Shown here: positions 7,301 through 49,792 of the stretch, piece after piece
Layout: each line of letters starts with the position of its first letter
Position numbering within the stretch: position 1 is the first letter of the stretch
Source: Escherichia phage JM10
Direction: 5' to 3' (one strand)
Length of the DNA stretch: 64,000 nucleotides
Sequence record: PP400777
Made by a program: the position numbers and the translations under genes
The notes under the pieces: model-generated
Databases searched by the model: none
Told to the model about the DNA's origin: nothing
The model's input: the letters and a program-made list of their open reading frames with translations, nothing else

Positions 7301-7693
7301 CTACTTTTTAAAGGTTTTTTGCAAAAGTTTGATGATTTCGTCGACGTTGGTTTCATCTACGATACAATTGATTTTTGTTACACCTAAAGCTATACCTTCG
7401 TTAGTAGATTGAGGCTTTACTAAATCTACCTCAATAAAGTATTTGAACTCGTCAGGATAAATCTCAAAATAAGTTTCAATTTCACCACCGGCAGAACATA
7501 CAGTACCATCTTCCATAGTTACACTTACTACGTTTGACGTATCGCTATCATAATCAGGTTCCATTCCGTTTACAACAAAACTAGGCCCGTGGAGTTCAAT
7601 CAATTTTAACATCTTAGCGTTATTATGTGGTGCTTCTTGAACAAAGTCATCTTTAAATAAAGGGTTAATGATATAAGATTTTCCGATTTCCAT
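7301..7693 (-). CDS. Hypothetical protein (130 aa)
   Basis: ORF with SD GAGGAAA upstream and an early-promoter-like GTTTAC about 55 nt upstream. Confidence 0.5.
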   Translation of the reverse strand: MEIGKSYIINPLFKDDFVQEAPHNNAKMLKLIELHGPSFVVNGMEPDYDSDTSNVVSVTMEDGTVCSAGGEIETYFEIYPDEFKYFIEVDLVKPQSTNEGIALGVTKINCIVDETNVDEIIKLLQKTFKK

Positions 7694-7778
7694 TTTGATT
7701 TCCTCATGTTGTTGATAGGTTTATACTAACACATCCAGGGAAGAAGTAAACAACTTTTTCGGCAATTTACAGATACTC

Positions 7779-35838: not shown

Positions 35839-36363
35839 TCATTTTAGCAAAATAAAATCAACTTGTTCCGCCAATGAACGTCTGAACATTAATTGACAAC
35901 TTCCGAGGATGAAATCAGGTGCTTCATAGACCGCGATGTAGTATCCTTTAGCTTTCAAGAGTTCAACATCCACCTGGTCATCAAACCATGCATAAACCGC
36001 GTCAACACTTTCAAATCCAAAATAGAACCCTTTAGCCCAATCTTCACTCAATTCAAATGTGTGCTCAATTCTATAGTATCTTAAGATATTTTGTTCAAGG
36101 AGTTTGTCTTCATTTACTGTAGGACGATTAGGGACATTATAGTTGTCGCCGTGATGGTAGAAGTTACCTGAGAGTATTCCATGCTTATCAAGGAACTCCC
36201 ATGTTTCTTCAGAGTTGTCGGTGCCCGACCAACCGTATGGCGAACGAGGTTCTTTATTCCAAGAGGTTTCCCAAATTCTGACGGCTTTACCATCTTCGAT
36301 AGCAATTCCTGGTAATGATTCACGTTGAGTACAAAAACTACGTTCTACGCGGTAAACTAACAT
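35839..36363 (-). CDS. Hypothetical protein (174 aa)
   Basis: ORF with GGAGAA Shine-Dalgarno and early promoter cassette upstream. Confidence 0.5.
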   Translation of the reverse strand: MLVYRVERSFCTQRESLPGIAIEDGKAVRIWETSWNKEPRSPYGWSGTDNSEETWEFLDKHGILSGNFYHHGDNYNVPNRPTVNEDKLLEQNILRYYRIEHTFELSEDWAKGFYFGFESVDAVYAWFDDQVDVELLKAKGYYIAVYEAPDFILGSCQLMFRRSLAEQVDFILLK

Positions 36364-36418
36364 ATTATTCTCCTCTGGTTGATATAGTTATATTACCAAA
36401 ACCAGAGGAGAAGTAAAC
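36364..36418 (-). promoter_or_regulatory. Early promoter with anti-Shine-Dalgarno inverted repeat
   Basis: Minus strand GTTTAC-UUCUCCUCUGGUUUUGG-TAATAT..AACCAGAGGAG..ATG: the 11-nt arm CUCCUCUGGUU in the spacer is complementary to AACCAGAGGAG containing the SD. Confidence 0.6.
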
Positions 36419-41805: not shown

Positions 41806-42387
41806 CTAAAAATTCAACATTTTCAAATGAATGATTTTGTATAATCGAGATAAAGGGTCATATTCTAAGTCTTCAATTTCCACAATCTCAAATCTAGAGA
41901 TACCTGAGACCATGTACTCTTGTTCAGATTCAATCATATCTAGGACGTCAACACGCGTTTCTTCCATAACATGCTTAGGGTTCTTTCCGGCGAGTACAAT
42001 GTTAATCATGTTTTGGTAGTAATCAAAAATGAATGGAGCATTCCTGAGACTAAGAATAGTGTACGTCTGATATTCCCATCTCCCAGAGAATTGACGAGCT
42101 GTACTGAAATCAGTTGTGAACGATGTTACTCGTCCAGGAGACCAATGGCATCCAACAGAAAGAAGGGAAAGACGTTCTACTTCTTCTGGAGTTACACCAC
42201 GGTAGAGTTCTACTGGTACTGTAGAAGTCATATGCTTACGAACAAGATGGTCTAATCCATAGTGGAAATCCGGGTCTTCCTTAGAATCGGTGCAAGCCCA
42301 GAGAATGTTTTGTTCTTGGCGGGTGAATTTGCTATCAATCAGATTTGTTAGGTATTCACGTTCTTGAAGTTCAGATTGACATGTCAT
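41806..42387 (-). CDS. modB: ADP-ribosyltransferase, ModB-like
   Basis: LYRGV, TSFTTD, ESEQEY motifs; paralogous to the adjacent ART; 193 aa. Confidence 0.6.
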   Translation of the reverse strand: MTCQSELQEREYLTNLIDSKFTRQEQNILWACTDSKEDPDFHYGLDHLVRKHMTSTVPVELYRGVTPEEVERLSLLSVGCHWSPGRVTSFTTDFSTARQFSGRWEYQTYTILSLRNAPFIFDYYQNMINIVLAGKNPKHVMEETRVDVLDMIESEQEYMVSGISRFEIVEIEDLEYDPLSRLYKIIHLKMLNF

Positions 42388-42443
42388 GATAGACCTCCAT
42401 TTAAAGATAAGCCTATCATAACACGAGAGGAGGGAATGTAAAC
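42388..42443 (-). promoter_or_regulatory. Early promoter with anti-SD element
   Basis: Minus GTTTAC-AUUCCCUCCUCUCGUGU-TATGAT ... AUGGAGGUCUAUC-ATG; CCCUCC in the spacer is complementary to the GGAGG Shine-Dalgarno. Confidence 0.55.
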
Positions 42444-46081: not shown

Positions 46082-46120
46082 AGTATTCTCCAGAGGCCTT
46101 AAATTAATAAGGCCATCTTA

Positions 46121-48768: not shown

Positions 48769-48960
48769 TTATCCTCTGAAATCAGCTTCAAAAACTTTCT
48801 CGTCATTAATAAATGCTTTAACTAATGTTTTGTTCACTTCAGCAAGTTGTACCGTAACCCACTCGATTTCTTCGCGATCACCTGATAACATCATATCTTT
48901 AGTGAACATCTCACCGCTTTTAAACCAACCGATAAAAGTAACTTTAGTTAATTTGCTCAT
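48769..48960 (-). CDS. dmd: Dmd antitoxin (inhibitor of host RnlA/LsoA RNase toxins)
   Basis: MSKLTKVTFIGWFKSGEMFTKDMMLSGDREEIEWVTVQLAEVNKTLVKAFINDEKVFEADFRG; 63 aa. Confidence 0.75.
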   Translation of the reverse strand: MSKLTKVTFIGWFKSGEMFTKDMMLSGDREEIEWVTVQLAEVNKTLVKAFINDEKVFEADFRG

Positions 48961-49274
48961 ATTTCCTCACAGAATGCCCATTCAGCATGATAAACTGTAG
49001 CACCTTTAGTATCATTCATTTGAACTACATCTACCGGAGAAATTACTCGATAGAGACGTGGTTCACCTCCATAAGAGCGTGCTGCTCGTCCTGCATAAAT
49101 CTTTGCTAAACCGATATCTTCAGTAAAGAATACACGATCCAAGTTTTTCTTACGTCCAGTTTCAGACAGAACTCCTGTTTCTTCAGGAGGACAAAGCATG
49201 TTTTCGATGTTAGCTGAACTACTTGAGCCGTGATAAAAAATCTTAAATTCTGCTTTACAATCGATGGTTTTCAT
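48957..49274 (-). CDS. Hypothetical protein (105 aa)
   Basis: ORF with ATGA overlap to dmd; preceded by a promoter/hairpin cassette. Confidence 0.5.
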   Translation of the reverse strand: MKTIDCKAEFKIFYHGSSSSANIENMLCPPEETGVLSETGRKKNLDRVFFTEDIGLAKIYAGRAARSYGGEPRLYRVISPVDVVQMNDTKGATVYHAEWAFCEEI

Positions 49275-49329
49275 TTTGTTCTCCAGTAGTTGATAGGTCT
49301 ATAATAACACAACTACTGGAGAAGTAAAC
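49275..49329 (-). promoter_or_regulatory. Early promoter with 12-bp anti-SD inverted repeat
   Basis: Minus GTTTAC-UUCUCCAGUAGUUGUGU-TATTAT-AGACCUAUCAACUACUGGAGAACAAA-ATG; arm CUCCAGUAGUUG in the spacer pairs with CAACUACUGGAG carrying the SD. Confidence 0.65.
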
Positions 49330-49704
49330 TTAAAAACGTAATTTAGATATATCTGCGTTGATTTCGTTTTGGTTTGCGTCGTATGCAATTAAACGAACCG
49401 CTTTAGATGGGTCATTCAATGCATAGAAATGATGGAACATTGCTCGAACGATATCACCATTTACGAGTTCTACCTGGATAGGAGAACCTTTTTCGAGTTG
49501 GAAATGTTCATAAGCTTTGATGGTTCGTAGATAATCAAGTTTTTGATTTCCGGCTCCAACAATTTGTACGATACGTTTGCCAATGTTTTCCATACGAGAT
49601 ACAATAGTTTTAGGAGCAAGAATAACGTAGGTTGCCAGCGGAGAAACTACTTCAACAGTTGTGTTTTCGGTGATTGCAGTAAAAATTGCTTGAGACATAT
49701 TCAT
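49330..49704 (-). CDS. Hypothetical protein (124 aa)
   Basis: ORF downstream of gene 41 with its own promoter cassette. Confidence 0.5.
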   Translation of the reverse strand: MNMSQAIFTAITENTTVEVVSPLATYVILAPKTIVSRMENIGKRIVQIVGAGNQKLDYLRTIKAYEHFQLEKGSPIQVELVNGDIVRAMFHHFYALNDPSKAVRLIAYDANQNEINADISKLRF

Positions 49705-49763
49705 AATGTTTTCCTCTTGGTTGGTGTAAGTACATCATATCATGCCTAGAGGAAGATGTAAAC
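49705..49763 (-). promoter_or_regulatory. Early promoter with anti-SD element
   Basis: Minus GTTTAC-AUCUUCCUCUAGGCAUGA-TATGAT ... CCAAGAGGAAAACAUU-ATG; UUCCUCU complementary to the SD AGAGGAA. Confidence 0.6.
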
Positions 49764-49787
49764 CCCGAAAGGAGACCGAAGTCTCCT
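49764..49787 (-). terminator. Terminator-like hairpin after gene 41
   Basis: GGAGAC-UUCG-GUCUCC hairpin 6 nt after the gene 41 stop; U-run is weak on the minus strand (UUUCGGGG) and strong on the plus strand (UUUUUAUU). Confidence 0.55.
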
Positions 49788-49792
49788 TTTTA

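Follow-up and report, generated by a model that had tools for sequence, protein, structure and literature searches.

Three early promoters in the genome of Escherichia phage JM10 carry, within the promoter DNA itself, one arm of an RNA hairpin whose other arm contains the Shine-Dalgarno (SD) sequence and/or start codon of the next gene. We are highly confident that these hairpins are real RNA structures that have been under selection, and we suggest that the three loci, here called A, B and D, probably act as self-insulating early expression cassettes, in which translation of the gene would be shielded from transcription coming from upstream. A fourth locus of the same sequence family, cassette C, has an early promoter but no hairpin that includes the SD or start codon. 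The analysis covers a stretch of 64,000 nucleotides (sequence record PP400777), referred to below as the window, which shares 98-99% identity with genomes of Mosigvirus, RB69-like coliphages of the T4 type that include FL31, NBG1 and PhAPEC2.

Promoter cassettes A to D and their leaders

All four cassettes lie on the minus strand, in the early region of this T4-like phage, where the gene order is gene 43 ... uvsX-40-41, small ORFs, dmd, imm, sp, 61 ... modB/modA-srd-dda-dexA-motB. A first-pass annotation had listed them as recurrent promoter cassettes with an anti-SD arm between the -35 and -10 elements. The promoter part of that description holds throughout: a GTTTAC -35, a spacer of 17-18 nt, a TAnnAT -10, a short leader, an SD and an ATG are all present where they had been placed on the minus strand. 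The promoters are of the GTTTAC-N17/18-TAnnAT early type, with an additional TGn element in A and D; those of A, B and D do not match the late type (TATAAATA, gp55). A search of the whole window against Rfam gave no family match at gathering score.

Cassette A (49272..49329, minus strand) precedes a 105-aa ORF (48957-49274) located upstream of dmd. Its promoter consists of a GTTTAC -35 (49329-49324) and a TATTAT -10 (49306-49301), with a predicted +1 A at 49294. The 5' arm of the hairpin, TTCTCCAGTAGTTG (49323-49310), sits in the spacer and begins right after the -35, and the 3' arm, CAACTACTGGAGAA (49292-49279), holds the SD GGAG (49284-49281) ahead of the ATG at 49274-49272. The two arms form 14 perfect base pairs, more than the first-pass annotation had claimed for this spacer and SD. 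A long leader, containing both arms, folds at -25.0 kcal/mol (z -4.99) and the short leader at 0 kcal/mol; the predicted probability that the SD is unpaired is 0.01 in the long leader vs 0.81 in the short one.

The arrangement of cassette B (36361..36418, minus strand) is very similar. It precedes a motB.2 orthologue (35839-36363), the product of which is 34% identical to T4 MotB.2 (E 3e-16) and is annotated as MotB.2-like in PhAPEC2. The -35 is at 36418-36413, the -10 (TAATAT) at 36395-36390, the predicted +1 at 36383 and the ATG at 36363-36361. Again the 5' arm, TTCTCCTCTGGTT (36412-36400), lies in the spacer and starts right after the -35; it pairs with a 3' arm that includes the SD, AACCAGAGGAGAA (36380-36368), over 13 perfect base pairs, and here too the complementarity is longer than had been described. 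The long leader reaches -23.1 kcal/mol (z -3.67), the short leader -0.8 kcal/mol.

For cassette D (42380..42443, minus strand), which precedes the modB orthologue (41806-42387), a hairpin masking the TIR is likewise predicted, but it is formed by other arms than those first proposed. The -35 is found at 42443-42438 and the predicted +1 at 42408. The 5' arm, CGUGUUAUGAUAGGCU (also given as CGTGTTATGATAGGCT; 42425-42410), comprises the TGn element, the -10 (TATGAT, 42420-42415) and the discriminator, and its partner, GGUCUAUCAUGACAUG (also given as GGTCTATCATGACATG; 42395-42380), takes in the 3' part of the SD together with the ATG (42387-42385). The stem has 16 base pairs, including 4 G·U, plus 3 more in an inner helix of TCT (42407-42405) with GGA (42398-42396); the long leader folds at -24.5 kcal/mol (z -4.09) and the short leader at -3.0 kcal/mol. 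The CCTCC tract (42433-42429, minus strand) that had been named as the arm is unused in the MFE structure, and its 5-bp match to GGAGG is at chance level.

The anti-SD arm claimed for cassette C (49702..49763, minus strand) is not supported. This cassette precedes a 124-aa ORF (49330-49704) and has its -35 at 49763-49758, the proposed arm TTCCTCT at 49754-49748, the -10 (TATGAT) at 49739-49734, AGAGGAA at 49717-49711 and the ATG at 49704-49702. The complementarity amounts to just 7 bp, a length that about 4.5 stems among 87 genes would reach by chance; the claimed pairing is missing from the MFE structure, the duplex energy of -12.8 kcal/mol lies inside the background, and the predicted probability of an unpaired SD is 0.62 in the long vs 0.77 in the short leader. 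An intrinsic terminator after gene 41 (49768..49789, minus strand; GGAGAC-ttcg-GTCTCC followed by TTT) lies directly upstream of cassette C; it forms a 9-bp hairpin in the MFE structure and is annotated as a terminator in phage NBG1. A further member of this sequence family, at 7691..7751 (minus strand), has only a weak arm and is also preceded by a terminator; its arms UUCUUC/GAGGAA make 6 bp including 1 G·U, with a duplex energy of -7.3 kcal/mol and a covariance-model score of 44 bits. That covariance model of the cassette is of no use as a hairpin-specific detector: it mainly scores promoter sequence and thus recovers early promoters generally.

Compared with the other gene starts in the window, A, B and D stand out clearly. 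A and B are the sole outliers in contiguous stem length among 87 gene starts, with about 0.02 stems of 13-14 bp expected for each from mismatched partners. When duplex energy is measured over the entire promoter and TIR, the three outliers among the 87 are A, B and D, with three duplexes at -20 kcal/mol or below vs 0.22 expected. None of 200 shuffles folded as well as the long leader of A, B or D. A different measure, the mean TIR-promoter pair probability in chimeric folds, gave no separation between cognate (0.385) and non-cognate (0.373) combinations; this measure is uninformative, since a T-rich promoter shows some weak pairing with whatever purine-rich TIR it is joined to, and duplex energies were used in its place.

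In all three cassettes the predicted +1 lies 3' of the 5' arm, so the hairpin would be formed solely by read-through RNA. The proposal that the SD is masked in read-through transcripts and free in those started locally is thus supported by the predictions for A, B and D (long leaders -23.1 to -25.0, short leaders 0 to -3 kcal/mol), but it does not extend to C, where the long leader has a z of only -1.61. For A and B together, the predicted SD accessibility is 0.01-0.02 in the long leader and 0.81-0.84 in the short one.

Recurrence of the cassettes and selection on the transcript

The T4 genome and the window were scanned for GTTTAC-type cassettes followed by an SD and an ATG, which yielded 33 cassettes in T4 and 14 in the window. 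The TIR-masking design was found in 3 of the 14 and 8 of the 33, respectively, the T4 cassettes being those of regB, alc, modB, denV, motB.2, nrdC.8, ndd.4 and alt.-3; the anti-SD arm of T4 regB is 15 bp long. The first-pass description of a repeated design was therefore, if anything, too modest, since eight such cassettes are present in T4 itself. For window and T4 combined, 10 cognate promoter/TIR duplexes have energies of -16 kcal/mol or below, vs 0.83 expected for non-cognate combinations, and none of 10,000 permutations matches this. Nine cassettes have a strong spacer/SD duplex, a set that leaves out the two modB cassettes of the -10/AUG type; their mean predicted probability of an unpaired SD is 0.12 for the long vs 0.73 for the short leader.

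For two of the three genes, motB.2 (B) and modB (D), the T4 orthologues have the same arrangement with different arm sequences. In motB.2 of the window, JS98-like phages and T4, the hairpin structure is kept and the sequence is not; in modB of the same three, the -10/discriminator region pairs with the SD-AUG region throughout, again with differing sequences. This comparison, based on the B and D proteins, comprises 3 loci each, from few lineages plus T4.

Further variants were collected with the pattern GTTTAC-W-TCTCC ... TAnnAT ... TATCAAC, in which the promoter and leader consensus is fixed, the variable arm positions are free and complementarity is not required. This yielded 25 different cassettes, from contigs of JS98-like phages and Mosigvirus, located before at least 6 unrelated genes, with matched arm sets CAGUAG/CUACUG, CAUUAG/CUAAUG, CUGUAG/CUACAG, CUCAUG/CAUGAG and CUCUGGUU/AACCAGAG. 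In the cassette alignment, five pairs show double changes, with 22 cells in total; none of 500 shuffles reaches that, and slid-partner controls are near zero. RNAalifold independently predicts the same 11-bp helix.

One alternative is that the hairpins have no function, being left over from the duplication of cassettes or reflecting chance complementarity of pyrimidine-rich spacers to purine-rich SDs. Any T4-type promoter region does pair weakly with any TIR, and C as well as the CCTCC tract of D are at chance level. Stems of 13-16 bp are nonetheless far beyond the null distribution, and there are compensatory changes, with the structure conserved over three genera while the sequence turns over; this explanation is already disfavoured, and we give it hardly any credence.

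An alternative at the DNA level is that the inverted repeat acts as a cruciform, or as an operator for a dimeric protein controlling the early promoter. The shut-off of early promoters is not understood (PMC3014915), and A and B are perfect inverted repeats around the -10; being perfect Watson-Crick repeats, these two alone cannot tell RNA from DNA. Across the 11 strong cassettes, however, the 177 pairs include 27 G·U vs 1 A·C mismatch, and in 8 of the 11 the sense duplex is far stronger than the antisense duplex (for cassette D, -22.1 vs -10.6 kcal/mol). Both the excess of G·U and the gap between the strands fit selection on the sense transcript and not on a cruciform or protein operator. The 17-20 nt between the arms would also disfavour cruciform extrusion on general grounds. 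We thus consider a role of the repeat in DNA very improbable. An operator for a sequence-specific protein was rejected, as the arm sequences differ between cassettes while their complementarity stays (covariation).

The recurrence reflects in part the shared ancestry of mobile cassettes, not independent design. Near-identical cassettes occur before unrelated genes in T4: that of alc (L057 36275-36336) resembles that of alt.-3 (L057 23032-23093), and that of nrdC.8 (L056 3885-3943) resembles that of ndd.4 (L058 16749-16807), the differences in the latter pair being mostly G·U-to-G-C switches that preserve pairing. Both T4 pairs indicate copying between loci. A JS98-like contig (IMGVR_UViG_641509422_000001; L085 267-307) has a CATTAG-type 5' arm but a CTACTG-type 3' arm, so that its stem contains one mismatch, and is consistent with a recombinant that arose by exchange between cassettes between the arms.

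Predicted mechanism and comparison with known elements

In the mechanism that we propose, the promoter spacer (A and B) or the -10/discriminator (D) would also encode the 5' arm of a hairpin, with the SD of the gene just downstream, in D also its AUG, forming the 3' arm. RNA from an upstream promoter would carry both arms and leave the gene untranslated; the 5' arm is made first, so that the ribosome-binding site would be paired as it emerges. RNA from the local promoter would begin about 2 nt before the 3' arm, without the 5' arm, and its ribosome-binding site would be open. The ORF upstream of dmd, motB.2 and modB would in this way be translated solely while their own early promoters fire, and their synthesis would be confined to the first minutes of infection despite ongoing read-through transcription. 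The cassettes belong to a family of which copies stand before unrelated genes in T-even phages. Transcription start sites, read-through RNA and the effect on translation are all things that we infer here. Read-through RNA should exist, since the upstream ORFs of A, B and D end 0-4 nt ahead of the -35 with no terminator in between.

The stop codons of these upstream ORFs lie 6 nt (A), 10 nt (B) and 17 nt (D) 5' of the 5' arm. In vivo, ribosomes or helicase activity could unwind part of the stems when the RNA is polycistronic. Translational coupling to the upstream ORF was rejected as the main mechanism: judging from the footprint size, a ribosome that stops at these distances would melt no more than about 3 bp, in the stem of A.

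The closest relatives in terms of mechanism are the hairpins of T4 e, soc, 49 and I-TevI, which sequester the TIR, contain an embedded promoter and are experimentally established (PMC3014915). As predicted for A, B and D, the SD and/or AUG of these genes pairs with an upstream arm in transcripts from distal promoters, and a promoter inside the structure gives translated transcripts without the 5' arm (PMC3014915); for A, B and D, promoter geometry predicts start sites that would have the same effect. The T4 genes have a late promoter (TATAAATA, gp55), by which translation is delayed until late infection, whereas the sigma-70-type early promoter embedded in A, B and D would limit translation to the immediate-early period. 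Unlike in the T4 genes, moreover, the spacer or the -10 is itself the arm, and the whole forms a repeated, portable cassette.

A looser parallel is found in the mRNAs of type I toxins. These are translated only from RNA species that lack or rearrange the masking segment. In hok and aapA1 the full-length transcript is inert, with the SD paired to an upstream anti-SD; sequestration of the SD in cis is likewise predicted for A, B and D. The type I toxins reach the active form by 3' processing and refolding, whereas in A, B and D the choice of transcription start would do so.

The PeSL cassettes of RB49/phi1, PST/T4 and nt-1/KVP40 (Arbiol 2010; Comeau 2014) come closest in overall layout. They are intergenic modules that combine a strong early promoter and an AT-rich region with a stem-loop, an SD and a start codon, and are repeated before many accessory genes and tied to gene shuffling (Arbiol 2010; Comeau 2014). 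A, B and D share the intergenic position, the strong sigma-70-like early promoter with an AT-rich region upstream and an SD and start codon after it, and a stable stem-loop within or overlapping the promoter. They also share the repetition: one cassette type precedes at least 6 unrelated genes in 25 variants, one variant is apparently recombinant, and alc/alt.-3 and nrdC.8/ndd.4 have cassettes in common in T4. One could read A, B and D as elements of the PeSL type, in which the stem-loop would weaken or stop transcription arriving from upstream and its main use would be as a patch of homology for recombinational gene shuffling, the pairing of the SD being incidental. Cassettes of promoter plus stem-loop are known in T4-type phages (Arbiol 2010; Comeau 2014), and one published PeSL stem-loop cut expression of a downstream lacZ as strongly as rrnB T1; the occurrence before unrelated genes and the recombinant contig fit this reading, as does a second class of stems without contact to the SD (see below). 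Published PeSL stems, however, are short, are located within the promoter or 5' of it and have been interpreted as terminators or attenuators, whereas A, B and D have no U-tract, have loops of 17-20 nt and were not called by a terminator scan. Their 3' arm reaches the SD/AUG and fits none of the five published positional subclasses, and the PeSL papers (Arbiol 2010; Comeau 2014) make no mention of SD or AUG pairing. The cognate complementarity between spacer and TIR is far above the non-cognate, specifically at the SD/AUG window, and the modB arm pairs with the AUG itself in cassette D, in T4 and in JS98-like phages. Homology for recombination needs neither intramolecular complementarity nor covariation that tolerates G·U. 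We think this PeSL reading of A, B and D unlikely. PeSL-like elements have also been noted at T-even internal-protein loci, where T4 early promoters come with AT-rich stem-loops of variable size (Repoila 1994, as cited in Arbiol 2010); the stems of the T4 ipII and ipIII cassettes enclose the -10 and stop short of the real SD, unlike those of A, B and D.

A strong arm was found in 0 of 12 cassettes lying behind a terminator-like hairpin and in 10 of 35 without one, a difference that is marginal (Fisher p 0.046) and was obtained with a crude terminator caller. In orthologues of the cassette A gene that lie directly behind the gene 41 terminator, either the 3' arm has suffered a deletion that leaves 5-6 bp, or the 5' arm is replaced by the terminator; in the lineage of the window an extra ORF stands between the gene 41 terminator and the cassette A gene, and the 14-bp stem is intact. 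Taken with the expected read-through, these patterns favour an insulation of translation from transcription that starts upstream.

A further alternative is that the hairpin is chiefly an element of RNA processing or stability, which shields the GGAG of the SD from RegB or RNase E/G in long transcripts, or provides a protective 3' end to the upstream message or an RNase III site, with control of translation being secondary. GGAG is present in the SD of A, B and D, and T4 regB itself bears one of the anti-SD arms; RegB cleaves GGAG in the TIRs of early transcripts unless secondary structure prevents it, and middle and late transcripts bearing GGAG are resistant (PMC3014915). The arms of T4 alc, alt.-3 and motB.2 are strong without any GGAG, however, and stems of 13-16 bp are short for RNase III. 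As the main role of the hairpins, processing or stability seems to us improbable. Protection from RegB is nevertheless compatible with translational masking, because a paired SD would be both uncut and untranslated.

Implications for early genes and additional observations

In T4-type early regions, small genes are densely packed and their read-through transcripts overlap; how each of them is shut off once the first minutes have passed is understood only in part. If the cassettes work as predicted, they would provide a purely cis-encoded rule, by which a gene is translated from its own promoter only. Such a rule would time toxic functions of host takeover, make genes independent of context when shuffled between phages and give a structural reason for the selectivity of RegB for early transcripts. 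In practical terms, the expression class could be predicted from sequence in the many unannotated T4-like genomes, and the cassette would offer a compact natural insulator for phage engineering. ModB and Alc have harmful host-directed functions. regB is described as tightly regulated, with its promoter off after 2-3 min, and ModA as highly toxic (T4 literature). Synthesis limited to the immediate-early period would suit the genes involved (regB, modB and alc).

We put forward more tentatively, as something possible that we would not yet call probable, that about one quarter of T-even early promoters are portable insulated expression modules, in which promoter DNA doubles as an RNA arm directed against the ribosome-binding site. 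If so, each shuffled accessory or toxic gene (regB, alc, modB, motB.2, denV and others) would receive a strictly promoter-autonomous window of translation that is immediate-early only. It could also explain why RegB cuts GGAG in the early but not in the longer transcripts of the same genes. Hairpins between early promoters and the SD are not described in two 2010 T4 reviews, in the two PeSL papers or in the other full texts searched; the older T4 literature may contain an earlier mention. Masking as such is a familiar mechanism. What appears to be undescribed is its link with early promoters, the fact that promoter elements themselves serve as the masking arm, and how frequent the design is, at about one fifth to one quarter of early cassettes, well-studied T4 genes among them.

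The second class of hairpins has a different layout: the -10 hexamer sits between the arms, in a loop of about 8 nt, and the 3' arm stops close to +1 without taking in the SD. In the window such hairpins occur at 47811-47750 and 26557-26497 (minus strand), the latter with arms TAGGACTA/TAGTCCTA; in T4 (L055-L058) they are found at promoters 20612 (dmd), 57990, 129918, 73939 and 65799, with stems of 10-15 bp. They can form in read-through RNA or in DNA only, and resemble the PeSL subclass "overlapping the -10". This class is common in T-even early promoters, and the selected property of stems embedded in promoters may be broader than masking of the SD. It is mainly because SD masking leaves the second class unexplained that we do not state the functional claim for A, B and D more firmly.

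The ORF behind cassette A ends in a stop codon that overlaps the start of dmd (ATGA, 48957-48960, minus strand). Because of this overlap, translation of the antitoxin gene dmd is probably coupled to that of the ORF, and dmd would hence rely on cassette A; T4 dmd, unlike dmd of the window, has its own early promoter. In three orthologous loci of the gene behind cassette A (L010, L014 and L015), the 3' arm CAACTACTGGAGA is unchanged, and an intrinsic terminator overlapping an extended -10 promoter takes the place of the -35 and the 5' arm, which looks like a natural exchange of translational for transcriptional insulation.

Upstream of gene 61, a 7-bp hairpin (GGCCTTA/TAAGGCC, 6-nt loop; 46095-46114, minus strand) lies just 5' of the SD of the primase gene, unconnected to any early promoter. 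In T4, the annotated start of ndd.4 (166764; L058 16764) falls inside the leader and lacks an SD; an in-frame ATG 15 nt downstream (166749) has an SD, GGAGGAACAG, at normal spacing and is the start that the hairpin masks, and the annotated start is probably wrong.
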